64,000 nucleotides of DNA from an uncultured Bacillota bacterium (GCA_958428295.1 CAUAFL010000007.1:2250-66249), one strand, 5' to 3'; counted from the stretch's first letter, positions 5,080-44,133 are shown. The notes: generated by a model from the sequence alone, not told the origin. Made by a program: numbers and translations.

Positions 5080-5238
5080 AGAATGTAATTTTATTTTAAA
5101 TAATCAGTGCCAACTTTTTTGCTGTCAACAGATATATCACAGTAATGAAGTAACAACAGACGTTCGTGCCAAATTATACAAACTTGCTTGTAGTTGTGAA
5201 TGTCCCTATTGGCGCGAAGATATATTTTAAATATTCCA

Positions 5239-5268
5239 CCACAAATAATGAAAATTATTTGTGGTTTT
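5239..5268 (+). terminator. Strong intrinsic terminator about 160 nt downstream of the DUF11-like stop codon
   Basis: CCACAAATAAT-gaaa-ATTATTTGTGG (11-bp perfect stem) followed by TTTT. No T-run on the opposite strand. Confidence 0.8.
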
Positions 5269-5280
5269 AATGATTTTCAA

Positions 5281-6183
5281 TTAGGAAAAGAAACTAAGTT
5301 GTGTTTCTTTTCCTAAAGTTTGGGGTACATATCGATGATAATCCCGTGAAACTTGGTATTCATTCGCTAATTCCGTTAAAACCTGACTGAGCATTTTTTT
5401 ATACCGGTTTTTCTGTTCTTTATCATGATAAAGCGTCCATAATTTTGTATAATAAGCAGGATAAACATTTTTTATAAACTCAAAAAAGTGTTGACGAGTG
5501 GGACCTCTTAAATTTAACATTCCCGTAATCATATAATCTACTTGACATTCTCTAGCCGTCTTGAAAATATTTGTTAAATTACTCTTAGTAGCAGTCAGAT
5601 ATGGGATAATAGGCATCAAGTGCCAACCTACACTAATCCCTTCGGCTTTTAAGCGCCTGATAACATCAATTCGTTCTGAAATAGGAGAAGCATGTGGTTC
5701 CAATTGATTCGCTAATTCTTGATCGAGTGTAGTAATAGTACAAGCTACTTGCAATCCTGCAACCTCTGATAATTGTTTCAATAAAGAAATGTCCCGCAAA
5801 ATTAAAGAAGATTTTGTACTAATAATAGCAGGGGTCTTATAACGAATCAATAATTTTAAAATTTCTGGCATGATTTGATAAATCTTTTCTGCTGGTTGAT
5901 AGCTATCGGTTACGCCTCCCAAATTAATAACTTCCCGTTTCCAAGTCCGACTTTGTAATTTTTTTTCTAAAACAGCCACAATATTTTGTTTCACAAAAAT
6001 ATGATGAAAAAAGTCTTCATCATCTAAATAACGATGAGAATATTGAGCATAACAATAAGCACATTGATGTTCACACCCCCGATAAATATTTAAATCCCAG
6101 TGATAGGGAAGAAAACTGTCAATATGGTTCAAAGCACTTTTACAAATAATTGGTTGATACTTAAAATTTTCTTGCACTTTCAT
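5281..6183 (-). CDS. Radical SAM protein, SPL/'DNA repair photolyase' (COG1533-like) family
   Basis: CxxxCxxC cluster motif CEHQCAYCYA near the N-terminus, and length and pattern typical of SplB-like radical SAM proteins. I place the start at 6183 (GAGG RBS, MKVQENF) because a promoter and LexA box occupy 6194..6222. Confidence 0.75.
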   Translation of the reverse strand: MKVQENFKYQPIICKSALNHIDSFLPYHWDLNIYRGCEHQCAYCYAQYSHRYLDDEDFFHHIFVKQNIVAVLEKKLQSRTWKREVINLGGVTDSYQPAEKIYQIMPEILKLLIRYKTPAIISTKSSLILRDISLLKQLSEVAGLQVACTITTLDQELANQLEPHASPISERIDVIRRLKAEGISVGWHLMPIIPYLTATKSNLTNIFKTARECQVDYMITGMLNLRGPTRQHFFEFIKNVYPAYYTKLWTLYHDKEQKNRYKKMLSQVLTELANEYQVSRDYHRYVPQTLGKETQLSFFS

Positions 6184-6193
6184 CACCAACCTC

Positions 6194-6222
6194 ACTATAT
6201 AACGAATTTTTGTTCGTGTCAA
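6194..6222 (-). promoter_or_regulatory. Sigma-A promoter with a LexA (Cheo) box in the spacer
   Basis: Minus strand reads TTGACA-CGAACAAAAATTCGTTA-TATAGT. The -35 is a consensus match with a 17-nt spacer. The spacer contains CGAACAAAAATTCG (6203..6216), 13/14 identical to CGAAC-N4-GTTCG. Confidence 0.7.
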
Positions 6223-6499
6223 TAAAAATAATTATCATAATATAATAAAATTTTGACTTTTTGTATGTAATTTCATATGATTAATACTATCCCGTTAAAT
6301 GGCACTAACAATCTCGCTAATAGATAGTTCATCTTTACTAAGAGCAGTAGTAAATTATTCCACCGTAAATATTTTACCTTGGTACTATTTAAACACATCA
6401 TATTTTTAAAATCTTATCCAAAAAGTGTGACCCTTGCTATGATCTGTCTCAACTGAAACCAATTTTTCTATCCTAAACCAGTCATATTTCTTTCACCGG

Positions 6500-6528
6500 T
6501 TCACATCTTAAAGTATACATGCTATAAT
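6500..6528 (+). promoter_or_regulatory. Candidate promoter for uvrB (extended -10)
   Basis: TTCACA, 17 nt, then TGcTATAAT. This leaves a leader of about 150 nt before uvrB. Confidence 0.5.
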
Positions 6529-6686
6529 AATGAATACCAAGAACCCCAGTAGTAGATAGCACTGTTTAGATAAAAAATATGAAGGCAAGCAAAATTGATG
6601 GAAAACTAAAATTCATTTTTTCCTTCTAAAATAAAGTAGCTTGTCAAGGCAAATTGGAATTATCTAAAAAATGGAGATGAGATAAA

Positions 6687-8633
6687 ATGTTTGAATTAGT
6701 ATCAAAATATAAACCAAGTGGTGACCAGCCCAAAGCGATTGAGGAACTAGTAAAGGGAATCAAAGATGGTAAAAAACATCAGGTTTTACTAGGTGCAACA
6801 GGAACAGGGAAGACTTTTACGATTGCTAATGTTATAAAAGAAATCAATAAGCCAACTTTAATTTTGGCGCATAATAAGACATTAGCAGGTCAATTGTATT
6901 CAGAGTTCAAAGAGTTGTTTCCCAATGCGCACGTATGTTATTTTGTGTCGTATTATGATTATTATCAACCAGAAGCATATGTTCCTAGTACTGATACGTA
7001 TATTGAAAAGGATTCTTCTATTAATGATGAGATCGATGAACTGCGTCATGCGGCAACGTCGGCTTTACTTTCCTTTAGAGATACAATTGTTGTTGCCAGT
7101 GTATCCTGTATTTATGGTATTGGAGAAGTAGAAGAATATAAAAATAAAATGATAACATTATCTGTTGGTCAAGGAGTAGAAAGAAATCAAATTTTAGCAA
7201 AATTAGTAGACATGCAATATCAAAGAAATGACTTCGATTTTCATCGTGGTACTTTTCGCGTTCGTGGTGACGTTTTAGAAGTTATTCCTGTCAATCAAAA
7301 TACTACGGGTTATCGTATTGAATTTTTTGGAAGTGAAATAGACCGAATTAGTGAAATAGATACTTTAACGGGAGCCATTTTAAATAATAAAAAGAATATT
7401 AGTATTTATCCAGCTAGTCACTTTGTGATCGGGGATAAAAAATTACAACGAGCTATTTCTACAATTAAGCAAGAATTAAAAGAGCGTCTTCAATATTTGC
7501 GAGATAATAATAAACTATTAGCGGCCGAGCGACTAGAACAGCGTACTAACTATGATTTAGAAATGTTACAAGAGACGGGCTTTTGTCATGGTATTGAGAA
7601 TTATTCTCGTCATATGGCTGGCCGTTTTGAAGGAGAAACACCAACTACTTTAATGGATTTCTTTGGGGATGATTATTTATTAGTCGTTGATGAATCTCAT
7701 GTCACCTTACCTCAAGTGCGTGGGATGTATAATGGCGATCGTGCGCGGAAACAAAATCTAGTTGACTATGGTTTTCGTCTTCCGAGTGCTCTTGATAACC
7801 GACCTTTAAAGTTTGAAGAATTTGAACAAAAAATTCATCAGGCAATCTATGTATCTGCTACCCCGGGAGATTATGAATTAACGAAAACAAATCAGCACTT
7901 TATTGAACAAATTATCCGCCCTACGGGTTTATTAGACCCAACCATTGAAATTCGAAAAACAGAAAATCAAATAGATGACTTATTAGAAGAAATTAGAAAG
8001 CGAATTGAAAAAGGAGAGCGTACTTTAATTACGACACTAACCATTCGTATGGCTGAAGAATTAACCAATTATTTAAAAGAAGTAGAAATAAAAGTCACTT
8101 ATCTTCATACTGAAGTAAAAACTTTAGAACGACTACAAATTATTCATGATTTACGTGCTGGGATTTATGATGTAGTCGTAGGAATTAACTTATTACGCGA
8201 AGGTATTGATATCCCAGAAGTTTCTTTAATAGCTATATTAGATGCCGATAAAGAAGGATTTCTAAGAAGTGAACGCAGTTTAATTCAAACAATTGGCCGT
8301 TGTGCTAGGAATGCTCAAGGACACGTTATTATGTATGGTGATAAAATTACGGATAGTATGCAGAAAGCGATCGATGAAACTCTTCGTCGACGACATATTC
8401 AAGAAGAATATAATAGAATACATGGCATTACACCACAAACAATTCAAAAGGAAATTCATGATGTGATTAGTAACATTGATACTGAAAAAACAAAAAAGAA
8501 AAAGCAAACAAAACAAGAAAGAATGAATGAAATAGAAAGAATTGAAACTGAAATGAAAGAAGCTGCAAAAAATCTTGATTTTGAACGAGCTATGGAATTA
8601 AGGGATATACTCTTTGAAATGAAGAGCGCTTAG
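6687..8633 (+). CDS. uvrB: Excinuclease ABC subunit B
   Basis: [18 protein letters not shown]..., Walker [13 protein letters not shown] box, helicase motifs, and the C-terminal UVR motif ([15 protein letters not shown]). Confidence 0.97.
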
Positions 8634-8645
8634 AGGTGATATACA

Positions 8646-9155
8646 ATGGCCAAAGAACTCAATATAAATCATTTGCGACAAAAAGCAATAGAAAGTAGTG
8701 AAACAGGTTTTATGGTTGCTGCTTCTTTAATTAATGATTGCTATCATTGTAGTGACCAGGAAGTTAGGGCTGTTGATACTTTTTTTCAAGCAACGCATGA
8801 AAATACTATGGCTAGTATCTATCAATCCTATATCGAGAGAATGAATAGGGAACGAAAAAATTCCAGTAAATCCAAATTCTGTATTATTACGCCGGTTTAT
8901 GCCAGCAAAAATGACAATGTTAATATTAGAAATTATTTAAGTTATTTGTATTTACAAAAATTTGTGGCTTTGTCTATGGAAGAGATAGGATTTTGTTGTC
9001 TTGAACTTGCAAAATTATGGTTTTCTTCTATTCCTGATGATATTATTTTTGAGAAAGTAGAACATGATTTTTATAATAATGATTGTTATGCCTTAAAAAG
9101 TTACTTTGATTTAGAACACAAGCAGGCGAACAAGCAAAAAATAAAAATACGCTAA
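8646..9155 (+). CDS. Hypothetical protein (169 aa), tightly following uvrB
   Basis: Long ORF starting 13 nt after the uvrB stop. I recognise no motif. It occupies the position where uvrA sits in many Firmicutes. Confidence 0.5.
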   Translation: MAKELNINHLRQKAIESSETGFMVAASLINDCYHCSDQEVRAVDTFFQATHENTMASIYQSYIERMNRERKNSSKSKFCIITPVYASKNDNVNIRNYLSYLYLQKFVALSMEEIGFCCLELAKLWFSSIPDDIIFEKVEHDFYNNDCYALKSYFDLEHKQANKQKIKIR

Positions 9156-9223
9156 TCAGGGTACCTAGAAGTATTTTCTACAAATTAAAAAATCACTCTA
9201 TATACAAAAATTAGCCAAAAGAA

Positions 9224-9252
9224 TTGACATGCAAATAATAATGTGCTATTGT
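9224..9252 (+). promoter_or_regulatory. Candidate promoter for secE-nusG
   Basis: TTGACA, 17 nt, then TATTGT. Confidence 0.5.
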
Positions 9253-9306
9253 ACAAATAAGCACTGATAGGTGTTTTTCTTTTGAAAAGTAAAAGGAAGC
9301 GAGAAA

Positions 9307-9594
9307 ATGGCAAAGAAACAAGAGAAGTTAGAAGAAACAAAAACGATGAAAAACAAACCAAAATCCACTGCAAGTAAAACAAAAAAAGCAGTGGCAAATA
9401 ATCAGGAAAGTATAGTAAAAAGAATAAAAAATTTCTTTGGTGGTGTCAAAACAGAAGCTAAACGAGTAAAATGGCCTAGTAAAAAAGAAATGATGAAATA
9501 TTCTATTGCTACCATAGTCTTTATTATTGGCTGTTCATTATTCTTTTATGCAATCGACATTATCATGGCATTTTTGCATACATTAGGAAAGTAG
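9307..9594 (+). CDS. secE: Preprotein translocase subunit SecE (with Lys-rich N-terminal extension)
   Basis: C-terminal part VKTEAKRVKWPSKKEMMKYSIATIVFIIGCSLFFYAIDIIMAF matches the SecE TM signature. It lies immediately upstream of nusG. The start could be an internal Met. Confidence 0.85.
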   Translation: MAKKQEKLEETKTMKNKPKSTASKTKKAVANNQESIVKRIKNFFGGVKTEAKRVKWPSKKEMMKYSIATIVFIIGCSLFFYAIDIIMAFLHTLGK

Positions 9595-9606
9595 GGGAAA
9601 CGATAC

Positions 9607-10140
9607 ATGGAAAAACAGTGGTATGTAGTAAATACATATTCAGGACATGAAAATAAAGTAAAAGAAAAATTATTAATGCGTGCTGAGTCAATGGATATGC
9701 AAGAATATATTTATCGTGTCATTGTCCCTGAGCAAGAGGAGACAGAAATCAAAGACGGTGTTACGAAGAAAAAAGTCAAAAAAATGTTTCCAGGTTACAT
9801 TTTAGTGGAGATGATTATGACAGATGAAGCTTGGTACATTGTTCGTAATACCCCGGGTGTTACCGGCTTTATCGGCTCTAGTGGAAAGGGAGCTAAACCA
9901 ACCCCTTTACAACCTTATGAAGTGGATAATATCCTAAAAAATATGGGAATTAGTCGTATTGATATAGATAAAGAATTAGAAGTAGGGACTAAAACTAAAA
10001 TTGTAGGGGGACCTTTTACAGGAATGTATGGTACGGTTGAAGAAATTGATACTGATCATCAGAAAATTGTTCTAAATGTTGATTTATTTGGACAAGAAAC
10101 ACAAGTAGAAGTCGAATTAGGACAAATTGAAAAAGTATAA
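9607..10140 (+). CDS. nusG: Transcription termination/antitermination factor NusG
   Basis: MEKQWYVVNTYSGHENKVKE..., an NGN domain plus a C-terminal KOW domain. Position matches secE-nusG-rplK synteny. Confidence 0.96.
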   Translation: MEKQWYVVNTYSGHENKVKEKLLMRAESMDMQEYIYRVIVPEQEETEIKDGVTKKKVKKMFPGYILVEMIMTDEAWYIVRNTPGVTGFIGSSGKGAKPTPLQPYEVDNILKNMGISRIDIDKELEVGTKTKIVGGPFTGMYGTVEEIDTDHQKIVLNVDLFGQETQVEVELGQIEKV

Positions 10141-10143
10141 ATA

Positions 10144-10172
10144 TTGCAAATACAAGCATTTTATGCTATTAT
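10144..10172 (+). promoter_or_regulatory. Candidate promoter for rplK-rplA
   Basis: TTGCAA, 17 nt, then TATTAT, followed by a leader of about 100 nt. Confidence 0.45.
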
Positions 10173-10280
10173 TTAAGGGCTATATTAATTAAAATATAGA
10201 TAAGTGGGAAGCAAAAGTGAAAAAACAAAAAAAGCTATTAGAACCACTCGCGAAAACGAGAAAGAAAGGATGTGTTTTTC

Positions 10281-10715
10281 GTGGCAAAAGCAGTTGTAAA
10301 AAAAATTAAGTTACAAATTCCTGCTGGCAAAGCAACACCTGCTCCACCCGTTGGTACAGTGTTAGGACCTGCTGGGATTAATCTACAAGAATTTTGTACA
10401 AAATATAATGATGCAACTAGAGAAAAAATGGGAGATATATTACCAGTAGAAATTTCTATTTATGATGATAGAAGTTTCGACTTTGTAATTAAAACTCCAC
10501 CAACCAGTTTCTTAATTAAAAAGTATGCCAAAATCAATAAGGGTTCAGTGAAAGGTGCTAATGAAACCATCGCAACCCTCACAGCTCAACAACTTAGCGA
10601 AATTGCTGAAACTAAGTTACCAGATTTAAATTGCTATACAGTAGAAGAAGCGAAAAAAATCGTTGCTGGTACAGCTAAAAATATGGGCGTTGATATAAAA
10701 GATACACAAGATTAA
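10281..10715 (+). CDS. rplK: 50S ribosomal protein L11
   Basis: ...KIKLQIPAGKATPAPPVGTVLGPAGINLQEFC... I prefer the GTG at 10281 (AKAVVKKIKLQ) because it matches the canonical L11 N-terminus. The track start at 10272 adds MFF. Confidence 0.93.
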   Translation: MAKAVVKKIKLQIPAGKATPAPPVGTVLGPAGINLQEFCTKYNDATREKMGDILPVEISIYDDRSFDFVIKTPPTSFLIKKYAKINKGSVKGANETIATLTAQQLSEIAETKLPDLNCYTVEEAKKIVAGTAKNMGVDIKDTQD

Positions 10716-10804
10716 GAACATTGAAACACATATAGGTAATTTACCTATGTGGGAGGATAAAGCCACTTATTGCTTACCGATATACCACATAAGGAGGAAA
10801 GAAA

Positions 10805-11503
10805 ATGAAGAAGAGAAGTAAAAAGTACCAAGAAGCCTCTTCTAAGATAGAAAAGAATACCTTGTATTCTAAAGAAGAAGCCTTAAAATTAGTAAAACAG
10901 ACAAGTGTTACTAAGTTTGATGCTTCTGTGGAAGTTGCTTTAAGATTAAATCTTGATACAAAAAAAGCTGATCAACAATTAAGAGGAGCGATAGTATTAC
11001 CAAAAGGAACGGGTAAAACAAATCGTGTCTTAGTCATTGCCAAAGGAGACCAAGCTAAAGCCGCTACTGAAGCAGGGGCTGATTATGTTGGGGATACGGA
11101 TTTATTAGAAAAAATCGAAAAGGAAAATTGGTTTGAATTCGATACAATGATTGCTACTCCTGATATGATGCCTTTACTAGGACGTCTTGGTCGGGTATTA
11201 GGACCAAAAGGATTAATGCCAAACCCTAAAACAGGAACGGTAACTACGGATGTTGCTAAAGCAGTGACAGATGCCAAAGCAGGACGCGTTGAATATAGAA
11301 CTGATAGTTTTGGGAATATTCATGCAATGATTGGGAAAGCATCATTTAGCGAAGAAGATTTGTTAGCAAATTTGAACGCTTTTGTAGCGCAAATTTTAAA
11401 AATCAAACCAGCTACCGTTAAAGGAGAATATGTAAAAAATATCTCAATTGCAACGACTATGGGTCCTGGCATTAAAATTATGCCAAATTCCTTTGACAAA
11501 TAG
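10805..11503 (+). CDS. rplA: 50S ribosomal protein L1
   Basis: [10 protein letters not shown]...[13 protein letters not shown]...[24 protein letters not shown]. Confidence 0.96.
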
Positions 11504-11521
11504 ACTCAAGTAGCATATAAT
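11493..11521 (+). promoter_or_regulatory. Consensus sigma-A promoter for rplJ-rplL (inside the 3' end of rplA)
   Basis: TTGACA, 17 nt, then TATAAT; both hexamers are perfect. Confidence 0.7.
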
Positions 11522-11527
11522 AAACTT

Positions 11528-11623
11528 GTTTGTTGGTGCCAAAGACAGTAGGTATAAACTTAAATCCTACCGAGGACGACTTTAAAATAAAAGTTCTCGC
11601 AAGGATTAGCGCGAGAATTTTTT
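11528..11623 (+). promoter_or_regulatory. L10 (rplJ) ribosomal-protein leader with attenuator terminator
   Basis: GGTGCCAAAGACAGTAGG...CCTACCGAGGACG resembles the firmicute L10 leader, an rRNA mimic of the L10(L12)4 site. It is followed by a TTCTCGC-aaggattagc-GCGAGAA hairpin plus T6 at 11594..11623. Confidence 0.65.
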
Positions 11624-11655
11624 GCACCCACAAAATATTTTATAGGAGGTGTAAC

Positions 11656-12150
11656 ATGGCGAATCAAAAAATCTTAGTTCAGAAACAACAAGTAATTGAA
11701 GAAATCAAAGATAAAGTAAATCAAAGTTCTTCGATTGTTTTATTTGATTATCGTGGTATGACTGACGAAGAAATCAAAGAGCTAAGAAATGCTTTAAGAA
11801 AAGCAGAAGCAGATTACAAAGTTTACAAGAATACCCTTATGGCTAGAGCTTTCAATGATCTACAAATAGATTTAAATAGTGCTTTAAAAGGCCCTAGTGC
11901 TCTTGCATACAGTACAGATCAAATCGCTCCCATTAAGGTATTAACAGATTTTGCAAAAGAACATCCTACGCTAAGTTTAAAAATTGGGGTAGTTGATGGT
12001 GAAATTGCCGATCAGACTAAATTGGCTGAATATGCAACCATTCCATCAAGAGATGGCTTACTAACGATGCTTGCTGGTGGAATGATTGGACTTGTAAGAG
12101 ACCTATCTATCTGCTTAGACTTATATGGTCAACAAAAAGAAGAAAATTAA
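11656..12150 (+). CDS. rplJ: 50S ribosomal protein L10
   Basis: AGGAGG RBS, then MANQKILVQKQQVIEEIKDK... The track ORF start at 11530 translates the leader and is rejected. Confidence 0.94.
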   Translation: MANQKILVQKQQVIEEIKDKVNQSSSIVLFDYRGMTDEEIKELRNALRKAEADYKVYKNTLMARAFNDLQIDLNSALKGPSALAYSTDQIAPIKVLTDFAKEHPTLSLKIGVVDGEIADQTKLAEYATIPSRDGLLTMLAGGMIGLVRDLSICLDLYGQQKEEN

Positions 12151-12169
12151 AATAAGGAGGAAATGAATA

Positions 12170-12541
12170 ATGGCAAAAATTACAAAAGATGAATTTATCA
12201 GTTCTTTAAAAGAAATGACACTTTTAGAAATCAAAGAATTAGTAGATGCAATGAAGGAGGAATTTGGTGTTGATCCATCAGCCGTAGCTGTTGCTGCTCC
12301 TGCTGCTGGTGCTAGTGAAGATGCTGAACCATCAACAGTTACTATTTCCATTGCTGAAGCTGGTGCTGCAAAAGTAGCTGTAATTAAAGTAGTACGTGAA
12401 ATTACAGGTTTAGGATTAAAGGAATCTAAAGATCTAGTAGATAATCCTGGAACTGCTATTAAAGAAAATATTAGTGTAGAAGAAGCAAATGAAATCAAGG
12501 CTAAACTTGAAGAAGCTGGCGCTACTGTGGAAGTAAAATAA
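12170..12541 (+). CDS. rplL: 50S ribosomal protein L7/L12
   Basis: Ala-rich hinge ([11 protein letters not shown]) and C-terminal [24 protein letters not shown]...EAGATVEVK. Confidence 0.97.
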
Positions 12542-12550
12542 GGTTAAAAA

Positions 12551-12572
12551 GGAAACTGCGGTTTCTTTTTTT
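12551..12572 (+). terminator. Intrinsic terminator after rplL
   Basis: GGAAAC-tgcg-GTTTC(T) hairpin followed by T8. Confidence 0.7.
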
Positions 12573-12597
12573 ATGTTATAAATGATACCTAAGTAAG

Positions 12598-12626
12598 TTA
12601 CATTCCAAACCAACTAATGGTATAAT
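12598..12626 (+). promoter_or_regulatory. Candidate promoter for the SDR gene
   Basis: TTACAT, 17 nt, then TATAAT, preceded by TGg (extended -10). Confidence 0.5.
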
Positions 12627-12644
12627 AATGGTAAGGAGGATAAA

Positions 12645-13382
12645 ATGTTAGAAAATAAAGTTGCTATTATTACTGGGGGAACACGTGGAATCGGTTTCGC
12701 TAGTGCAAAACTATTTTTAGAAAATAAAGCAAAAGTAGTTATATTAGGTTCTAGAAAAGAAACGGTAGAAAAGGCCATTAATCAATTAGCAAACTATCAT
12801 GGAAATGTCATTGGGTTTTATCCCAACTTGGTAAACGAACAGGAAATAAAACAAATGCTAGCCAAAGTCAAAGAAACATTTGGGCATATTGATATTTTAG
12901 TTAATAATGCTGGTATTTCTTCTAGTACCCCTATAAGTAATTATACAAATAAGGAATACGACAACATTATGGACTTAAATTTAAAAGCGGTCTTTTTATG
13001 TAGTCAACTAGTGATTCCTTACATGAAGGAGGAAAAAGGTGGTGTTATCATCAATACTTCTTCTGTGGTTAGCCATTATGGCCAAGCATCAGGGTGTTTA
13101 TATCCTAGCTCTAAATTTGCGGTCAATGGATTAACAAAGTCCTTAGCACGTGAACTTGGAAAAGATAATATTCGCGTTAATGCAGTGGCACCAGGGATTG
13201 TCAATACTGATATGGTTTCTAGTCTACCAAAAGAAATGATTGAACCATTAGTAAATACCATTCCGTTGCATCGAATGGCAGAACCTGTGGATATTGCGAA
13301 TGCTATTTTATACTTAGCAAGCCCGATGGCTAATTATGTTACAGGAGCTATTTTATCAGTAGACGGAGGAGCTGTCATTTAA
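12645..13382 (+). CDS. Short-chain dehydrogenase/reductase (FabG-like 3-oxoacyl reductase family)
   Basis: TGGTRGIG cofactor motif, NNAG, and catalytic YPSSKFAV (YxxxK). Confidence 0.85.
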   Translation: MLENKVAIITGGTRGIGFASAKLFLENKAKVVILGSRKETVEKAINQLANYHGNVIGFYPNLVNEQEIKQMLAKVKETFGHIDILVNNAGISSSTPISNYTNKEYDNIMDLNLKAVFLCSQLVIPYMKEEKGGVIINTSSVVSHYGQASGCLYPSSKFAVNGLTKSLARELGKDNIRVNAVAPGIVNTDMVSSLPKEMIEPLVNTIPLHRMAEPVDIANAILYLASPMANYVTGAILSVDGGAVI

Positions 13383-13420
13383 AATATTATGTCAAGTGGC
13401 AAAAAATAGTGATTAGGATC

Positions 13421-13705
13421 TTGACTTTTAAAAAAGATCATGTATACTTTAAATATAGTTCTTAGTAATATTGCAAGGAAATAAAAGATAATCATTCTAA
13501 ATATTTCGAGAAAATTGTAATATTGAGATGAAGTTTGGGAGCGCACTTTGAGCTTTAAACGAAAGGTCTACCACAGCTAAGAACTAATAACTATTAGAAT
13601 GAGAAAGACAACTCAAAATGGATAAGCAGCTATTAAATGTACTGATAATACAATTAATAGTACCTAAACAAACTAGGATCATTTACGAAAGTAAATGATT
13701 TTTTT
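13421..13705 (+). ncRNA. Candidate orphan transcript (about 250 nt): promoter to terminator with no annotated ORF, contains a 26-codon ORF
   Basis: TTGACT, 16 nt, TATACT at 13421..13448. Terminator ATCATTTAC-gaaa-GTAAATGAT plus T7 at 13678..13705. Internal long-range complements AGTTCTTAG/CTAAGAACT and TCATTCTAA/TTAGAATGA. Small ORF at 13618..13698. Confidence 0.4.
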
Positions 13706-13713
13706 ATTTATAA

Positions 13714-13739
13714 ATAAAAAAAGCCTTAGAATTAGGCTT
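13714..13739 (-). terminator. Intrinsic terminator for the acidic-protein gene
   Basis: Minus strand reads AAGCCT-aattcta-AGGCTT followed by T7. Confidence 0.6.
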
Positions 13740-13744
13740 CACTT

Positions 13745-13987
13745 TTAAAATAAATCATGAAAAGAAGTCGTATCATCACTTTCGATGATATCATCTCCTT
13801 CAACAATTGAAGTACTATCATTATCGTCTATATCATCCATAATAGTTTCCTCTTCGTCCTCATCTGGAATATTCATAACAATTGGTTCACTTATGCTAGC
13901 ACCATGATTCTGCAAATAACGTAATGCCTTTCTGGCTTCCTCGGGAATCTCGGTAATTTGCTGTTCATCTACTCTATCTTGATCCAT
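13745..13987 (-). CDS. Hyper-acidic small protein (80 aa), unknown function, divergent from essC
   Basis: MDQDRVDEQQITEIPEEARKALRYLQNHG... followed by a D/E-rich tail (PDEDEEETIMDDIDDNDSTSIVEGDDIIESDD). GGAGG-type RBS (aaggaggaagagt) upstream and its own terminator. Confidence 0.6.
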   Translation of the reverse strand: MDQDRVDEQQITEIPEEARKALRYLQNHGASISEPIVMNIPDEDEEETIMDDIDDNDSTSIVEGDDIIESDDTTSFHDLF

Positions 13988-14133
13988 ACTCTTCCTCCTT
14001 ATTCATCAAAAGAATACCATAAATAGGAGTACTTTTCAACTGCTAGACAACTTTCACAAAAAAGAACTTTAGCATTGTTTCTTTGAAATTATTATAGTAA
14101 AATGAATTATAGAATAAAATAGAGGTGAGTTAG

Positions 14134-17100
14134 ATGTTACTATATTTACTATATGAGAACAAATTATCTACTTTTCTCTTGCCTAAAAATATTTCTGGTA
14201 ACTATATTGTATCTGATTATGATCATTTAGGCAGCAAAAGAAATATTATAAATATTGAAGAACGAAACGGTATCTGGCAAATTTGTAGTAACTACGATAA
14301 TAAGTTAATTTATAAAAAAGAATACTTGGATACTGCTGAATTGAAATTATTTGAATTCTACCAAATTCAGTTATATACAGGCGAAATGCTGTTAATTTAT
14401 GTAGCAGAAGCTTATGCCAATACCATTATTCAAAAACAAATGCTAGATAATAGCACTATCATAATTGGTAATATGGATGAGTGTGATATTAAATATGCAG
14501 GCTTTAATAATTTAAACCAATTACAAATAGAATATAAAAACCACCAATATTATATAACCAATATAAATCCTACTATGAATCTGTATGTAAATCGTCTAAA
14601 AAAAGAAAAGACAATATTAAAAAATTTAGATACTATTTTTTGTATGGGGTTAAGGATAACAGTTTGCGGCTCTTCCTTATTTTTTATAGTACCTAAGCAA
14701 TCTCTACAAATTCTTTCCCATAAGTTTGAAGAAGTAACAAGTCAGTTAATTACTAAAGATTATCAGGCTTCTGCTGATATCTATAAAGATTTTTATGATG
14801 AAAAAGAATATTATGCAAAAGCACCTGTTTTCAAAAATAAATTAGAACCTTTAGAATTGACGATTGCAACCCCTCCTCCTAAGCAAGAACCTGAAAATGA
14901 ATCCGTAATGATGACAGTAATCCCTTCTTCATTAATGTGCATGACCTCTGTTATTATGGGGTATTTTGCTATTAAGAATTTTAACAATAAAGACGTAGAT
15001 ATGGAAACGAATATTTTATCACTTGTGATGTGCATTTCCATGTTGATGGCTTGTATATTGTGGCCTTTTGTCGAGCGAAACTATCAAAACCATCGGCTTG
15101 CTAAAAAAGAAAAAAAACGGCTTAAAACGTTTGAAAAATATTTACAAGAAAAAGAAATACTATTAAAAAAAGAAATAGAACAACAACGTTTAATTTTGCA
15201 AAATAACAACATTACGTTGAATGAATGTCAAAAAGCAATTCTTAACAGAACGCCTAATTTATTTTCGAGAAATATAGAACAAGAGGACTTTCTAACAGTA
15301 AGACTAGGGATTGGAACTGTTCCTTTAGCCTGTAATTTACAATATCATCGAGAAGAGTTTACCGAAAATGAAGATACATTACGTGATCAAATTGATAAAA
15401 TTGTGAATGAAAATAAAGAAGTATCTAATGTGCCTATCAGTTTATCCCTAACTGAACATAATGTAGTTGCCTTCTTGAGCGATAGTGTGGATAAAAAAGC
15501 TTACTTTGAAGCGATTTTATTACAATTAATTACCTTACAAAGTTATACAGATCTAAAGTTAATTATGCTGACAGATAGCTTAGGAGAAAATGAGCTTTCC
15601 TATATGAAACACCTAAATCATTGTTGGAGTAATGATAAAAGTATTCGCTTCTTTGCTACTACTTTTGAACAGGGACAAATACTTTCTAGTTATTTAGAAC
15701 GGGAATTAAATGATCGAACTAGCGAAAACACTCATAAGGATCAAAAATATGCCCCCTTTTATTTAATTTTGTCAGATAATATCAGTAGTTATCGTAATTT
15801 GAAAATAGTAAAAGATATTTTAAAAGAAAAAAAGCAAGTTGGATTTGGCTTATTAATTTTTGATACTAAAGTTTCTAATGTTCCTAATGAATGTGATCAA
15901 TTCATAAATTATAATAAAGAGCAAGCAGCTTATTTCTCCAATGTTATGGATAAAGACACGATTCTTTATTTTAAGCCAGAATTTATGGAGGCTACGTTAA
16001 ATATTTCTGAATGTTGCCGTATACTAGCTAATACCCCTGTTAAATTGGCTCTTGATGAGGCCAAACAGATTCCCAATAATGTGGGCTTTTTAGAAATGTA
16101 TGAAGTAGGCAATGTTGAACAATTAAATACGAAAGGCCGTTGGGAAATGTCAACGGTTACTACAAGTCTAGCTGCGCCTATTGGAATCGATGCCTTTGGT
16201 AATGTATTACTTCTTGATTTGCATGAGAAAAAGCATGGACCTCATGGTTTAGTGGCAGGAATGACGGGTTCTGGTAAAAGTGAATTTATTATTACCTATA
16301 TTCTCTCATTAGCAGTCAATTATCGTCCCACAGAAGTACAGTTTGTCTTAATTGATTATAAAGGGGGCGGTTTAGCGGGTGCTTTTGAAAACCGTAAAAC
16401 GGGTGTTAAACTTCCCCACTTAGTAGGAACGATAACGAATTTAGATAAGGCCTCTATGAATCGTTCATTAGTATCCATTAATAGTGAATTACAACGAAGA
16501 CAACGACTCTTTAATGAAACGAAAGAACAATTAAATATTGGTACTATTGATATTTATAAATATCAAAAATTATATCGTGAAAATACCATTACTACTCCTT
16601 TATCTCATCTATTTATTATTTGTGATGAATTTGCCGAATTAAAAGATCAACAACCGGAGTTTATGGACCAGTTGATTTCAACAGCACGAATTGGACGAAG
16701 TTTAGGAATTCATCTAATTTTAGCTACACAGAAACCAACGGGTGTCGTTGATGATCAAATTTGGAGTAATAGTAAGTTTAAAATCTGTTGTAAGGTGCAA
16801 ACGGAAGAGGATAGTAAAGAAATGATTAATCGTCCGGATGCTGCCTACATTAAAGAAATCGGTCGTTTTTTTCTCCAGGTAGGCTATGATGAATACTTCG
16901 TGGAAGGACAGTCAGCTTATACTGGTAGACCATATATTCCAACGAATAAAGTAAAATCAAAAGTAGATAATAGTATCAATTTTGTAAATACAACTGGAGA
17001 GATAATGAAAACGGTCGAAGACTTAGAAGAAAATAAGGCCAATAATAACACTTATGGAGAGGAATTAAAAAATATTTTAGAGTATCTTATTAAAATCGCC

Positions 17101-18690
17101 TCTAGTCAAAATTTTCAGTATCAGCAATTATGGCTTGAAAATATTCCTCCTAAAATTTATATTGAAGATATCCGTAAAAAGTATCCATCAGAACCTAAAA
17201 GGAATATATTAAATCCAATGATCGGTGAGTATGATGATCCTGCCCACCAAACACAAGGTGTAGTGACCTTACCGATTACTGAGGGTGGTAATTGCTTTAT
17301 TGCAGGAATGACGGGCAGTGGAAAAACCACGCTGTTAAAAACATTAATCTACTCTATTATGGTAACGCACCGCAGTGATGAAGTGAATATCTATGTTATA
17401 GATTTAGGATTGGAGGCACTAAAACAATTTGAGCGTGCACCTCAAGTAGGGGAAGTATTGACCGTAGCAGAAGAAGAAAAAATAAAACGCTTATTCAAAA
17501 TATTAGAGAATGAAGCAGAACAACGAAAAAAAATATTATCTAAAACAGGTGGTACTTATCAGAGCTATTGTCAGGAGGGGAATCTTCCCAATATAGTTAT
17601 AATGATTAACGGAATTGAAGTTTTTAAAGAGGTTTTTGATGAACTTTACGAAGAAACCTTTATTAATCTCACAAGAGATTGTAACAAATATGGAATAACT
17701 TTTATTGTTACCAGCACGAGTTCTACGGGATTAGGATACCGAGCTGAAAATAATTTTCCACAAAAAATTGGGCTTCGCTTACTAGATCAGGACGAATACT
17801 ATAACTTATTTCCAAGAAATGACGTTTTAATTACCCAAACACCAGGACGTGGTCTGATAAACTTAGAAGGAATTTATGAGTTTCAAACTGCCTTACTATT
17901 TACTGAGGAGACCCTAGAAACAAACCTGGATTATATTTTTAATGAGTTACAGAAAGTTTTAAAAAAGGTAAAACCAATACCTACAATGCCTAGCATAGTA
18001 ACTGCTAGTTCACTTTTAAAAAACAATCTTGCTTTAAATTATTTTCCAATAGGGAAAAATATAGAAACGGTCAGTACTGTTTACTACAACTTTACTGAAC
18101 CACTAACTGTTATTAGTACGCTAGAAGAAGAAACGTACGTAAGTTTTACAGAGGCTTTTCTAACGATTGCCAAAAATTGCCCTCAAACGAAGATGATTAT
18201 TTTAGATGGCCTCAAATTAATTACCAATCCAAAAGATGACAAAATAAAGTACTATGATGCTAACTTTAAACCGCTAATGAAGTATTTAAAAGAAATGATT
18301 CCTACGATTGCCGATCGGAAGGATCAAACTTATGCTATTGTGGTGATGGGGTACCAGAAGATTGCACAACACTTAGAAAAACTAAAGGAAGAAAGTTTAG
18401 ACGAAGAAGTTGTAACTTTGGATGACATTATAGAATTAGCACAAACAACGACTAATTTCAAGTTTATTTTTCTTGATTTATATGCCTCTTTAAAAAGTAT
18501 TAAAAAGAAATCATGGTATTCGCTTATGAAACGAAATTCTGGAATTTGGTTAGGCAGTGGATTTGAAGATCAAACTCTTATAAACGCTAAGCATAAAGAT
18601 CGCTATTTCTCAGAAGAAGAAAATATTGCCTATGTGATAACGGAAGGAGAAGTGACATTAATGAAACCAATACAAGGAGGAGATAGATGA
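14134..18690 (+). CDS. essC: Type VII secretion (T7SSb) FtsK/SpoIIIE-family ATPase EssC/YukB-like
   Basis: 1518 aa. N-terminal FHA-like region, two TM helices, then tandem FtsK-type ATPase modules with Walker A GMTGSGKSEF and GMTGSGKTTL. The third module has no recognisable P-loop. Confidence 0.88.
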   Translation: MLLYLLYENKLSTFLLPKNISGNYIVSDYDHLGSKRNIINIEERNGIWQICSNYDNKLIYKKEYLDTAELKLFEFYQIQLYTGEMLLIYVAEAYANTIIQKQMLDNSTIIIGNMDECDIKYAGFNNLNQLQIEYKNHQYYITNINPTMNLYVNRLKKEKTILKNLDTIFCMGLRITVCGSSLFFIVPKQSLQILSHKFEEVTSQLITKDYQASADIYKDFYDEKEYYAKAPVFKNKLEPLELTIATPPPKQEPENESVMMTVIPSSLMCMTSVIMGYFAIKNFNNKDVDMETNILSLVMCISMLMACILWPFVERNYQNHRLAKKEKKRLKTFEKYLQEKEILLKKEIEQQRLILQNNNITLNECQKAILNRTPNLFSRNIEQEDFLTVRLGIGTVPLACNLQYHREEFTENEDTLRDQIDKIVNENKEVSNVPISLSLTEHNVVAFLSDSVDKKAYFEAILLQLITLQSYTDLKLIMLTDSLGENELSYMKHLNHCWSNDKSIRFFATTFEQGQILSSYLERELNDRTSENTHKDQKYAPFYLILSDNISSYRNLKIVKDILKEKKQVGFGLLIFDTKVSNVPNECDQFINYNKEQAAYFSNVMDKDTILYFKPEFMEATLNISECCRILANTPVKLALDEAKQIPNNVGFLEMYEVGNVEQLNTKGRWEMSTVTTSLAAPIGIDAFGNVLLLDLHEKKHGPHGLVAGMTGSGKSEFIITYILSLAVNYRPTEVQFVLIDYKGGGLAGAFENRKTGVKLPHLVGTITNLDKASMNRSLVSINSELQRRQRLFNETKEQLNIGTIDIYKYQKLYRENTITTPLSHLFIICDEFAELKDQQPEFMDQLISTARIGRSLGIHLILATQKPTGVVDDQIWSNSKFKICCKVQTEEDSKEMINRPDAAYIKEIGRFFLQVGYDEYFVEGQSAYTGRPYIPTNKVKSKVDNSINFVNTTGEIMKTVEDLEENKANNNTYGEELKNILEYLIKIASSQNFQYQQLWLENIPPKIYIEDIRKKYPSEPKRNILNPMIGEYDDPAHQTQGVVTLPITEGGNCFIAGMTGSGKTTLLKTLIYSIMVTHRSDEVNIYVIDLGLEALKQFERAPQVGEVLTVAEEEKIKRLFKILENEAEQRKKILSKTGGTYQSYCQEGNLPNIVIMINGIEVFKEVFDELYEETFINLTRDCNKYGITFIVTSTSSTGLGYRAENNFPQKIGLRLLDQDEYYNLFPRNDVLITQTPGRGLINLEGIYEFQTALLFTEETLETNLDYIFNELQKVLKKVKPIPTMPSIVTASSLLKNNLALNYFPIGKNIETVSTVYYNFTEPLTVISTLEEETYVSFTEAFLTIAKNCPQTKMIILDGLKLITNPKDDKIKYYDANFKPLMKYLKEMIPTIADRKDQTYAIVVMGYQKIAQHLEKLKEESLDEEVVTLDDIIELAQTTTNFKFIFLDLYASLKSIKKKSWYSLMKRNSGIWLGSGFEDQTLINAKHKDRYFSEEENIAYVITEGEVTLMKPIQGGDR

Positions 18691-18938
18691 ATAAAATATT
18701 AATTAGTGTATATGTTATTACCCTTGATGCAAAATACGATTTATTTGTTCCTATTAACATAAAAACGAGTAAAATGATTGACCTGATTCAAAAATCTATT
18801 GTGGAATTATCATTAGGACATTATCAGATCAATCAAACGGCACATCTTTATGATGGTAAAAGCGGAATGTTAATCAATACAAACAATATCGTGAAATATT
18901 CAGGGTTACAAAATGGCAGTAATGTTTTATTGATATAA
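18687..18938 (+). CDS. YukD/EsaB-like ubiquitin-fold (beta-grasp) T7SS accessory protein
   Basis: 83 aa. ISVYVITLDAKYDLFVPINIKTSKMIDLI...LYDGKSGMLINTNNIVKYSGLQNGSNVLLI matches the EsaB/YukD pattern. The ATGA overlap with essC indicates translational coupling. Confidence 0.75.
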   Translation: MNKILISVYVITLDAKYDLFVPINIKTSKMIDLIQKSIVELSLGHYQINQTAHLYDGKSGMLINTNNIVKYSGLQNGSNVLLI

Positions 18939-18940
18939 TA

Positions 18941-18974
18941 AAAACTCTTATCTTTTAAAGATGAGAGTTTTTTT
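18941..18974 (+). terminator. Intrinsic terminator after essC-yukD
   Basis: AAAACTCTTATC-ttttaaa-GATGAGAGTTTT (one G-U pair) running into a T-run. Confidence 0.75.
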
Positions 18975-19332
18975 CATAAAAAAAGAGATTTAAATCTCTT
19001 ATGTTAGCCAAATATAACAAAGTTATATTCTAGGATAAAAAGAACCTGATAAATTCTAGATTATCCGAGTTTTATGGGGGCAGAAAATATAGTGGCTACT
19101 ATCCATGTATTTGGATCCTTACATGTCTGCCGTCTACCATTAAAGTAACTCTCTTCTTGTTTGGCTGATAACTATCAATATACATTAACCGATAAGCATT
19201 CCCTAAGGTAGCATAGCTGTTCTGAATAAACCTAATAAGCGTTTAACAGAATTACTATTAATCTGTATACTGTAATTTCATTATAAATAAAAAGTATAAA
19301 AATGTCAATAATAGAAGAATATTTTTATGGTG

Positions 19333-19361
19333 TTGACAGCAGTGTTGACAAAAAATATAAA
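19333..19361 (+). promoter_or_regulatory. Candidate promoter for the two small helical genes, within a duplicated GTGTTGACA motif
   Basis: TTGACA, 17 nt, then TATAAA. GTGTTGACA occurs twice (19330..19338 and 19342..19350). Confidence 0.5.
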
Positions 19362-19432
19362 AAATAATAAAGAAATAGTTGAATAACCATAAGTAATATG
19401 ATAAAGTCAAGGTAAAGTAAGGAGGCTAAAAT

Positions 19433-19789
19433 ATGGCAACAACAACTGATGATCAAATTAAAATTGATTTTGATCAAATAGAAAATTATCAAAGTTTATG
19501 TAACAAGAGTCTGCAAAGTATTGGGAAATCATTTACCGCAATTGCGACCCAATATCGTTATCTAGTAAAAAATGGCGGTTTACAGGGAACTGCGGATGGT
19601 AAAGCAATTCAAGAAAGTCTAAGAAGTACTGTAAAAAAAGCTAAGATAAGAGCAAAAAAAGTGGAAGATCGCCGCAATGAACTAGACAAAGCAATTACTG
19701 CTGACACCCAGAAGGCTTATCAACAATTGATGAAAGGTCATGCAGAACTAGAAGCAAGAGTTGCTAAACTAGAGCAAGCTCAAGACTAA
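19433..19789 (+). CDS. Small all-helical protein, putative T7SS substrate/partner (WXG100-like layout but no W-x-G)
   Basis: 118 aa with an AGGAGG RBS. A helix-turn-helix hairpin layout is predicted by eye, with GGLQGTADGKA at the turn where WXG100 proteins have W-x-G. The C-terminal part is heptad-rich. Confidence 0.45.
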   Translation: MATTTDDQIKIDFDQIENYQSLCNKSLQSIGKSFTAIATQYRYLVKNGGLQGTADGKAIQESLRSTVKKAKIRAKKVEDRRNELDKAITADTQKAYQQLMKGHAELEARVAKLEQAQD

Positions 19790-19805
19790 AAGGAGGAAGG
19801 AAAAT

Positions 19806-20081
19806 ATGGCAAAGAGTATTAAAATTAATAGATCAGAAATTACGAAACGTTGTAATGCAGTCAATGCTGAAATTGAATCTATGAAAAAGCAAATTCAAAA
19901 CTATCGCAAGTATATTTCGGAAATGCAAGCTAAAGAAGTATTTGTCAATGGCCCAGCTAGTAAAAAATTCTATCAAAATTCTGAGAAAAACATGAAATCT
20001 AATGAACTAGCCATTCAACAATTTGATACCTTAAATCAGAGCTTAATGAACAGATTTGGTAAATGGCAAGTTAATAGTTAA
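19806..20081 (+). CDS. Small all-helical protein, putative T7SS substrate/partner
   Basis: 91 aa, the size of WXG100 proteins, with a GGAGG RBS. It starts 16 nt after the previous gene. The central turn is FVNGPASKKF; there is no W-x-G. Confidence 0.45.
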   Translation: MAKSIKINRSEITKRCNAVNAEIESMKKQIQNYRKYISEMQAKEVFVNGPASKKFYQNSEKNMKSNELAIQQFDTLNQSLMNRFGKWQVNS

Positions 20082-20198: not shown

Positions 20199-20789
20199 AT
20201 GAGCCACTATTTTGAAAATGATCAGAAATTACAAAGTAACTTAAAAAAAACAACGGCCTATCTTCTTTCTCACCAATTTACTTTTTATACAGATAATGGT
20301 GTTTTTGCTAAGAACGGTCTAGATTATGGGAGTAAATTGTTACTAGAATCTCTACCAGCTGCTACAATTAAAGGTCATGTTCTCGATGTCGGCTGTGGTT
20401 ATGGTGCTTTAGGAATTGTGCTCAATAAAGTCTATAATGTGAAAGTGGATATGATTGATATTAATAAACGAGCTTTGCATTTAGCTAAAAAAAACCAAGC
20501 TGAAAATCATTGCCACCAACTAAAGATTTATGAGAGTAATATATATCAACAAGTAACGGATCCATTTGATATAATTATTACCAATCCACCCATTCGAGCC
20601 GGCAAAAAAATTCTCTATGAAATTTTATTGGGAGCGAAAGAGCATTTAATAAAAGGGGGACTACTTTATTTTGTTGTTAGAAAAGATCAAGGTGCTAAAT
20701 CGATCATTTCCGACTTAAAAAAAGTATACGATATAACTATTATAAATAAAAGTAAAGGTTTTTACATAATTCAAGCAGAAAATGATTGA
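20199..20789 (+). CDS. Class I SAM-dependent methyltransferase, RsmC/YbxB-like (16S rRNA m2G-type small domain)
   Basis: VLDVGCGYGALG SAM motif and IITNPPIRAG (NPPxxxG). It has the same position, just upstream of rpoB, as ybxB in B. subtilis. Confidence 0.8.
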   Translation: MSHYFENDQKLQSNLKKTTAYLLSHQFTFYTDNGVFAKNGLDYGSKLLLESLPAATIKGHVLDVGCGYGALGIVLNKVYNVKVDMIDINKRALHLAKKNQAENHCHQLKIYESNIYQQVTDPFDIIITNPPIRAGKKILYEILLGAKEHLIKGGLLYFVVRKDQGAKSIISDLKKVYDITIINKSKGFYIIQAEND

Positions 20790-44010: not shown

Positions 44011-44133
44011 TAAATACGTGTGGCTGCTTAGATGTGGGAGGTTGCTGATACGCTAGGTTGAGTTGTCAATTAGCTATCGGGTTATTCACACGGAGCAAGT
44101 CTATACTAGATATAGGCGAAGGGAGGATAAAAT

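Follow-up and report, generated by a model that had tools for sequence, protein, structure and literature searches.

The stretch of DNA analysed here, hereafter referred to as the window, is a single 64-kb sequence from an uncultured Bacillota bacterium. Between rplL and a ybxB-like methyltransferase gene, which is followed by rpoB (starting at 20887) and then rpoC, lies a cassette of five genes encoding an EssC-type ATPase of 1518 aa, a ubiquitin-like protein of 83 aa, two small basic helical proteins of 118 and 91 aa, and a hyper-acidic protein of 80 aa. We consider it probable that the cassette is a functional, compact type VII secretion system (T7SS) locus that falls outside the published T7SSa-j scheme. 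The open reading frame (ORF) map of a first-pass annotation was reproduced with all coordinates matching exactly. Its statement that the locus interrupts the rplL-ybxB-rpoB string agrees with the end of rplL at 12541 and the start of the methyltransferase gene at 20199. Its description of the locus as EssC plus YukD only had to be given up: the acidic protein is a conserved fifth component, present at about 20 loci. A scan of GTDB species genomes yielded 80 related loci, all from uncultured gut or rumen metagenome-assembled genomes (MAGs). ORFs were called and clustered in 87 loci, 84 of them non-redundant, with relatives visible to 10 kb on either side. Related loci are labelled L001 and so on, and the window is labelled WIN.

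Several lines of sequence evidence indicate that the 1518-aa ORF is a true EssC. The protein passes the NCBIfam equivalog model for Firmicutes EssC (TIGR03928, 'T7_EssCb_Firm') with 928.9 bits against a curated cutoff of 778.4 (E=4.8e-279), and coverage reaches model position 1293 of 1296, the last ATPase module (D3) included. The closest solved structure is B. subtilis YukB (9qks_G, E=1.1e-107), far above actinobacterial EccC proteins. The protein collection contained about 130 EssC homologues of about 1520 aa each, the top one being 56% identical. The first-pass annotation had named clustering with non-secretion FtsK-like proteins as a finding that would speak against a secretion role. An FtsK/SpoIIIE or conjugation-type identity was effectively ruled out by model scores of 57.3 bits for FtsK (cutoff 1566), 24.1 for TraB (cutoff 800) and 14.9 for TraD (cutoff 366), all failing where TIGR03928 was passed.

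The architecture described earlier for this protein, with FHA modules, two transmembrane (TM) helices and two P-loops, was located in full. Pfam FHA was not seen in the window EssC itself; it was found in 13 of 21 aligned homologues. An AlphaFold2 (AF2) model of residues 1–240 contains a pair of all-beta sandwiches with predicted local distance difference test (pLDDT) values above 90 over residues 1–200, and the top three Foldseek matches of this N-terminal part were the FHA structure of G. thermodenitrificans EssC (5fwh), YukB (9qks_H) and S. aureus SAV0287 (1wv3). The motif GxxxxGK[ST] occurs exactly twice, at residues 709 (nt 16258) and 1058 (nt 17305). Thus, the third C-terminal module has no P-loop, as had been annotated; in an alignment of 21 family sequences, the positions conserved in D3 include no P-loop residues.

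Across the same 21 homologues (40–56% identity) both Walker motifs of D1, the first ATPase domain, are invariant, as are G1058, G1061, G1063, K1064 and T1066 of D2. Mean family identity is 76% for D1, 48% for D2, 36% for the FHA region and 28% for D3. This is the pattern expected for a conserved motor with a substrate-specific last domain, and D3 is presumed to be a substrate-recognition module. The invariant Walker motifs and the difference between D1 and D3 identity indicate that EssC is under purifying selection. Cryo-electron microscopy of B. subtilis YukB/YukC/YukD places YukD in a clasp that is formed by the FHA domains, the DUF domain and a hairpin of beta-strands (residues 918–931) in ATPase domain D1 (PMC12637312). 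A phmmer alignment matches this hairpin to residues 947–960 of the window EssC, and F950 and G955 within the segment are conserved in the family.

The start codon of the 83-aa ORF overlaps the essC stop codon as ATGA (18687–18690), as noted before, so that the two genes are translationally coupled. Its product had been described as a YukD/EsaB-like beta-grasp protein. The AF2 model has a pLDDT of 92 and beta-beta-alpha-beta-beta order. A Foldseek search with this model gave 182 PDB matches at E<=1e-3; all of the matches listed have a ubiquitin-like or other beta-grasp fold, and ubiquitin-like domains of EccD from ESX-5 (7npt_D8, rank 4) and of EccD1 (4kv2) are among them. The 83-aa family is found within 3 kb of essC in 78 of 84 non-redundant loci. 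Weak matches to Pfam YukD (PF08817) were obtained for 6 of 41 family members (best E=0.001), and a search of PDB sequences with the family profile did not find YukD. The protein lacks a C-terminal Gly-Gly and ends in ...NVLLI. The earlier description is therefore borne out by the model, by Foldseek and by adjacency to essC, not by Pfam or NCBIfam: the protein models as a ubiquitin-like beta-grasp fold and is YukD-like by fold and synteny.

The two small proteins encoded downstream had been described as helical, lacking W-x-G, and as possible non-WXG clients of EssC. The lack of the motif is literally true; however, the 91-aa protein has V47-N48-G49 (nt 19944–19952) at the homologous position, W-x-G is kept in 15 of 16 aligned orthologues, and G49 is nearly invariant in the family. 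In hhalign comparisons the 91-aa family matched small-protein family c4 from clade II of the related loci (see below) over its full length and with the motif aligned (95.6% probability, E=1.1e-8), and c4 in turn links at 98–98.6% to families above the Pfam WXG100 cutoff. A word-indexed homologue search with the 91-aa protein returned only the protein itself, exhaustive phmmer added one weak coiled-coil match, and the WXG-like family profile run against PDB gave only coiled-coil noise, with an ESAT-6-like chain at E=0.068. Its length and its place beside essC fit a WXG100 protein. On the profile comparison and the motif column, we regard the 91-aa protein as a probable member of the WXG100 superfamily, with a motif that has degenerated in this genome. 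The idea of non-WXG clients is not upheld.

In relatives, homologues of the 118-aa protein always adjoin the WXG-like gene, directly upstream of it. A single fused protein of 218–335 aa replaces the pair in L002, L004, L010 and L043. Such fusions are classic evidence of a physical pair. Profile similarity of the 118-aa family to WXG100 families is weak (63% probability). Gene order and fusions point to the 118-aa protein being the heterodimer-type partner of the WXG-like protein, in an EsxB-like or Lap-like role. Both small-protein families are basic, with median net charges of +6 and +5.5 (the latter for the 118-aa family). Canonical WXG100 proteins from clade II, by contrast, have an acidic net charge (about −5).

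The fifth protein has a net charge of about −22; its N-terminal motif is IPEEARKALRYLQ, its tail is acidic, and FHDLF stands at the C-terminus. A family hidden Markov model (HMM) identified it at 23 loci (20 non-redundant), all in the window's clade. The family shares the N-terminal motif MPxxLKxAIxxLN and a median net charge of −26, opposite to that of the basic small-protein families; its C-termini read SDLDSLF, DLEDLF, LNDLFQ, FHDLF and similar. Family conservation identifies the acidic protein as a conserved cassette component with a DLxxLF-type C-terminal motif, inverted in this genome. D-x-x-F-like endings are also present on some WXG-like orthologues and on fusion proteins. From these shared endings we infer that the DLxxLF-type motif may be a targeting signal, and that the acidic protein may serve the basic pair as a chaperone or adaptor.

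In a subclade comprising L002, L004, L048 and L060, essC and the yukD-like gene are no longer adjacent. There, about 500 nt of conserved non-coding DNA (67–86% identity, no consistent frame) separate the acidic and yukD-like genes (L002 15752–16480; L004 15701–16254; L048 15620–16200; L060 15630–16459). This stretch gave no Rfam family at the gathering threshold.

No candidate for EssA, EssB/YukC or EsaA/YueB was found in the window. Among clusters of TM proteins encoded within 4 kb of essC in the 84 loci, none occurred in more than six, the one that recurred to that extent being SecE. No conserved neighbour of more than 150 aa was found within 3 kb of essC beyond ribosomal and RNA-polymerase context genes. 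Other conserved neighbours of essC are small helical proteins or context genes (L1, L10, L12, NusG, methyltransferase, RpoB), and membrane neighbours sampled by Pfam were unrelated (Abi, HtrA, P-type ATPase, MMPL, GGDEF and similar), the large multi-TM ones being the P-type ATPase, the MMPL and the GGDEF protein. Neither YukC nor EssA was matched in five contexts for which separate gene calls and precomputed Pfam annotation were available.

As a control, the nearest outgroup EssCs (32–34% identity) were inspected and adjoin genes for PP2C, DUF6382, FHA-protein, kinase, LytTR and WXG100; with these neighbours the outgroup loci count as T7SSe/f/j-like under the classification by Garrett, Higginson and Palmer (2024; PMC11217815). 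A phmmer search with the outgroup PP2C, DUF6382, FHA, kinase and LytTR proteins against 1569 flanking ORFs gave zero matches; the search did not include TsxI, TsgL, TsxG and TsfV sequences. Thus, neither the window nor the 10 kb on either side of related essC genes contains EssA, EssB, EsaA or an accessory of the T7SSe/f/j type, a statement about the neighbourhood only. Within these bounds, the atypical context lacking membrane partners that had been annotated earlier is confirmed.

The related loci carry the labels Bacilli, Tenericutes, Mollicutes, Erysipelotrichaceae or 'Ca. Coprovivens'. A neighbour-joining tree of EssC contains two clades, with the window in clade I, which carries the acidic protein, the divergent WXG-like gene and its partner gene. 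The position between rplL and the methyltransferase-rpoB genes is occupied in about 12 loci scattered through clade I (WIN, L002, L005, L009, L014, L015, L018, L020, L025, L026, L027 and L060). In L002, L005, L009, L014, L015, L018, L020, L025 and L027 the methyltransferase gene follows the cassette, and in L002, L009 and L020 essC starts 61–97 nt after rplL. The interval from rplL to the methyltransferase gene is 6.7–7.7 kb in the clade I loci, and EssC identity among loci sharing the arrangement is 40–50%. In L004 the cassette is relocated and adjoins scpAB.

Since the position is scattered through clade I, it is old and probably ancestral to the clade, with relocations being later. The comparison of the rplL-rpoB interval in relatives, proposed in the first-pass annotation, thus found the same gap occupied, and the 7.5-kb insert, which had been described as wedged in, is not recent but belongs to an old, lineage-wide arrangement. 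A recent horizontal insertion was considered and rejected (insert GC content 0.28–0.35, flanks about 0.33–0.37; position common to a deep clade). Because essC often lies 61–97 nt after rplL, and has resided there for long, the cassette is probably expressed with or near the ribosomal and RNA-polymerase transcription units.

Clade II is never found at the rplL-rpoB position. Its cargo consists of canonical WXG100 and DUF4176 proteins and of toxins with an LXG-like helical N-terminus (for example L044 10381–11601 and L056 8711–9886, minus strand), whose C-termini, read by eye with no Pfam scan, resemble peptidoglycan hydrolases (D-Ala-D-Ala-carboxypeptidase-like and CHAP-like). One clade II locus (L088 17289–24584) encodes ADP-ribosyltransferase toxins paired with ADP-ribosylglycohydrolase genes. 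Both clades are represented on separate contigs of one MAG in RUG12933 (L010 and L069) and in RUG343 (L021 and L040), so both kinds can coexist in one genome. Two essC-yukD cassettes stand side by side in L048 (about 5000–16500), where one essC is split into ORFs of 1036 and 463 aa; apparently the same two-essC arrangement, with no split, runs up to the contig end in L007.

Table 1. Features of the cassette and its borders in the window (positions counted from the first nucleotide of the stretch)
Feature	Position (nt)	Strand	Basis or remark
rplL (L7/L12)	12170..12541	+	ORF; left boundary of the interrupted rplL-methyltransferase-rpoB string; Ribosomal_L12 called in L001, L002
Short-chain dehydrogenase/reductase (SDR)/FabG-like oxidoreductase	12645..13382	+	Pfam adh_short E=6.7e-63
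PGK RNA motif-like non-coding element, ends in terminator hairpin	13532..13713	+	Rfam RF03040, sub-threshold
Hyper-acidic protein, 80 aa	13745..13987	-	ORF, family HMM
EssC/YukB-type T7SS ATPase, 1518 aa	14134..18690	+	TIGR03928
EssC tandem FHA-like domains, residues 1 to ~195	14134..14718	+	AF2 and Foldseek
EssC two TM helices, residues 258-280 and 294-313	14905..15072	+	Sequence
EssC D1 motor core: Walker A GMTGSGKSEF (residues 709-718), Walker B LFIICDEFAEL (825-836)	16258..16641	+	Sequence
EssC SINFVNTTGEIMKT, residues 947-960	16972..17013	+	phmmer alignment to 9qks_G; matches YukB beta-hairpin 918-931
EssC D2 Walker A GMTGSGKTTL, residues 1058-1067	17305..17334	+	Sequence
EssC D3 module without P-loop	18001..18690	+	No GxxxxGK[ST] motif
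Ubiquitin-like (YukD/EsaB/TsxB-like) protein, 83 aa	18687..18938	+	AF2, Foldseek, synteny
Hairpin with A-run and T-run flanks	18943..18975	both directions terminator-like	Read from sequence, 3' of yukD-like gene
Basic helical protein, 118 aa	19433..19789	+	Neighbour and fusion evidence
Basic protein, probably of the WXG100 superfamily, 91 aa	19806..20081	+	Profile-profile comparison and motif column
ybxB-like class I methyltransferase	20199..20789	+	Pfam MTS E=6.2e-44; right boundary

The coordinates are collected in Table 1. The SDR gene between rplL and the cassette was absent from all six related intervals with both flanks readable (L002, L009, L015, L018, L020 and L027) and looks like a lineage-specific passenger; the inverted orientation of the acidic-protein gene was likewise not found in these six. 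The terminator followed by non-coding DNA that had been noted after the 83-aa gene is present, as a hairpin and T-run at 18943–18975. The 494-nt gap at 18939–19432 contained no gene remnant by blastx and blastn, and this 0.45-kb gap between the yukD-like and 118-aa genes gave no Rfam match.

Several non-coding elements were seen along the way. The gap contains a perfect σ70 consensus promoter on the minus strand (TTGACA-17-TATAAT, 19308–19280). The minus-strand RNA that this promoter would produce (19272–18940) is predicted to fold far more stably than shuffled sequences do (z = −4.68). Two terminator-like hairpins close it, the one at 18943–18975 being its 3′ hairpin. Neither an Rfam match nor similarity in the related loci was found for it, and it is a candidate small RNA or antisense RNA of about 300 nt. 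The PGK RNA motif-like element at 13532–13713 is 79% identical to L023 15002–15194 (plus strand), the EssC proteins of the two loci being only 51% identical. Over the full RF03040 model the window copy scores 34.1 bits and the L023 copy 42.1 bits (gathering score 50.8), and the terminator hairpin after it has one compensatory change between the two. The element lies directly upstream of the acidic gene in L023 and is convergent with the inverted acidic gene in the window. No copy of the PGK motif was found upstream of gap/pgk in the window.

An Rfam L10 leader is present upstream of rplJ in L002 (8878–8996), L005 (7743–7858) and L060 (7837–7954); in the window it was not found at the gathering score. 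The 206-aa ORF with a TTG start called as rplJ in the window (11530–12150, plus strand) is probably over-extended at its 5′ end, because its relatives have 164–175 aa. Elsewhere, the window contains a T-box leader (59084–59273) and an S10 leader (44021–44119).

In the mechanism that we propose for a functional compact T7SS, EssC would oligomerise in the membrane. The FHA domains, the DUF domain and the 947–960 hairpin would clasp the YukD-like protein, by analogy with YukD in YukB, and this clasp would lock EssC in an assembly-competent conformation. The 118- and 91-aa proteins would form an EsxA/EsxB-like heterodimer, either as exported cargo or as a co-secreted core substrate. The acidic protein would neutralise or chaperone this basic dimer and may also supply a C-terminal targeting motif that docks on D3, with export being driven by ATP hydrolysis at D1.

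A stronger form of this mechanism can be put forward only tentatively. According to it, the cassette would be a self-sufficient minimal T7SS. The translocon would then consist of nothing but an EssC hexamer and the YukD-like protein bracing it, and would do without EssB, EsaA, EssA and kinase or phosphatase accessories; a hyper-acidic adaptor with a DLxxLF tail would present a basic EsxAB-like dimer to a degenerate D3. Uncultured gut Bacilli would commonly possess such a system, and one clade would have it built firmly into its rplKAJL-rpoBC expression hub.

A number of observations weigh against our interpretation. The 83-aa protein has no Pfam or NCBIfam match, and YukD (2BPS) is not among the top 50 Foldseek matches of its model. 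Pfam WXG100 (PF06013) matched neither the 91-aa protein nor its 11 closest orthologues. Usable Pfam and NCBIfam matches were also lacking for the 118-aa protein, and Pfam on its family likewise found none; for the acidic protein and its family no Pfam family was found, and for the protein no usable NCBIfam match. The roles given to the acidic protein and to the C-terminal motif are pure inference. The absence of EssB, EssA and EsaA near essC was established by clustering, a TM census and sampled Pfam annotation, with no direct sequence search. All data come from MAGs or metagenome contigs with 10 kb visible per side, and partners could lie elsewhere. The T7SSb-type FHA tandem normally binds EssB/YukC, and that of B. 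subtilis binds YukC (PMC12637312); the missing EssB is therefore surprising and could mean a distant or relocated partner.

Two other explanations were considered. The cassette could be only the ATPase and substrate module of an ordinary T7SSb, with EssA, EssB/YukC and EsaA/YueB encoded at another locus; EssC scores as a TIGR03928 equivalog, has the FHA tandem that is YukC-binding in B. subtilis, and was viewed within 64 kb here and 10 kb on either side in relatives. We regard this as unlikely, since characterised T7SSb loci keep the EssA, EssB and EsaA genes contiguous with essC (PMC11217815), none is adjacent in 84 species-level loci across many genomic contexts, and the cassette moves as a unit without them. 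We also doubt that other, non-homologous membrane or regulatory partners, parallel to those of T7SSc-j, are needed and are encoded elsewhere or are too divergent to cluster. All described T7SS variants do have at least one component beyond TsxA, TsxB and TsxC, and the nearest outgroup EssCs adjoin PP2C, DUF6382/FHA and kinase genes. However, there is no conserved neighbour of more than 150 aa within 3 kb, the outgroup accessories are unmatched in the 1569 flanking ORFs, and the extra conserved proteins are only small and soluble.

The remaining explanations would deny the locus a present role in secretion. The loss of the WXG motif in this genome (V-N-G), the inverted acidic gene, the entry of the SDR gene and 0.45 kb of non-coding DNA into the cassette, and the split second essC copy of L048 could be read as signs of a T7SS remnant that is decaying in reduced genomes and has lost secretion. 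An intact 1518-aa ORF with invariant catalytic motifs, the retained overlap of essC with the 83-aa ORF, and five intact genes conserved across more than 20 clade loci make such decay very unlikely. That the large protein is a non-secretion FtsK/SpoIIIE-like ATPase, such as a DNA translocase or conjugation coupling protein, is hardly credible. Pfam FtsK_SpoIIIE does match it, as do the TraB, TrwB and FtsK models weakly; yet FtsK reaches 57 against a cutoff of 1566 and TraB 24 against 800 while the EssC model is passed, and a T7SS is marked out by its FHA tandem, its YukD-like partner and its neighbours of WXG100 type.

In current models EssB/YukC is the scaffold of the T7SSb channel, built from YukB:YukC:YukD units of 1:2:1. 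The clade described here would provide a naturally occurring 'minimal translocon' for studying what EssC and YukD can achieve by themselves, and it points to still undiscovered partners. The basic EsxAB-like pair and the protein with the acidic DLxxLF tail are candidate new T7SS components. The conserved rplL-rpoB position suggests constitutive, growth-coupled expression in abundant uncultured gut bacteria, and the peptidoglycan-hydrolase-like and ADP-ribosylating toxins of clade II are relevant to competition in the gut.

T7SS variants a to j were defined from RefSeq genomes by Garrett, Higginson and Palmer in 2024 (PMC11217815). TsxA (WXG100), TsxB (ubiquitin-like) and TsxC (ATPase) are common to all of them with rare exceptions, and each variant has one or more specific components beyond these three (PMC11217815). 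The T7SS of B. anthracis is functional without EssA, EssB and EsaA, with other conserved genes flanking its essC (PMC11217815). The window system resembles T7SSb (Ess of S. aureus, Yuk/Yue of B. subtilis) in the architecture of its ATPase (tandem FHA, two TM helices, DUF, D1–D3), with YukB as the closest solved relative. As in T7SSb, a separate EsaB/YukD-type ubiquitin-like protein adjoins essC, the YukD-contact hairpin of D1 is conserved, D3 is variable, and small helical WXG100-type proteins are encoded alongside. Unlike T7SSb, the system lacks EssB/YukC, EsaA/YueB and EssA/YueC, both in the window and in the 10-kb flanks of the 84 related loci. It also has two non-identical small proteins in place of one EsxA homodimer; their charge is basic, not acidic, and in this genome W-x-G has lost its W. 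The extra hyper-acidic protein with a DLxxLF tail and the location within the rplKAJL-rpoBC string are further differences.

With T7SSa the system shares an adjacent, non-identical pair of helical proteins of about 100 aa beside the ATPase, comparable to EsxA/EsxB (ESAT-6/CFP-10). Also T7SSa-like is a short motif at the C-terminus of an associated protein, with a hydrophobic residue plus Phe at its end; by analogy, it could plausibly direct docking on the last ATPase domain. In contrast to T7SSa, the motif is carried by a third, hyper-acidic protein (and by WXG-like orthologues or fusions in some relatives), not by the WXG-like pair of the window, and EccB, EccD, EccE and MycP are not present.

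Like T7SSc-j, above all the simple T7SSg and the FHA-bearing T7SSf and T7SSj, the system has the near-universal trio of TsxA, TsxB (with no Gly-Gly) and TsxC; it shares a non-identical pair of small proteins with T7SSe and T7SSg, and FHA domains on the ATPase with T7SSf, T7SSi and T7SSj. It differs from T7SSc-j in having near essC none of TsxD kinase, TsxF PP2C and TsxJ DUF6382/FHA, by sequence search and neighbour clustering, and no TsxI (Ig-rich), TsgL (beta-propeller), TsxG (EspG-like) or TsfV (AAA+), by neighbour clustering only. Since that survey was restricted to RefSeq, uncultured lineages such as that of the window were not sampled by it (PMC11217815). A search of the literature available to us found no description of this variant, no further T7SS subtypes beyond j, and nothing informative on essC in Erysipelotrichaceae, Mollicutes or RF39. 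The trio without the listed accessories nearby, the lineages not sampled in RefSeq and the lack of a published description that we could find together lead us to rate the variant as new. We conclude that the rplL-rpoB cassette and its relatives represent a real and, so far as is apparent, hitherto undescribed T7SS variant.

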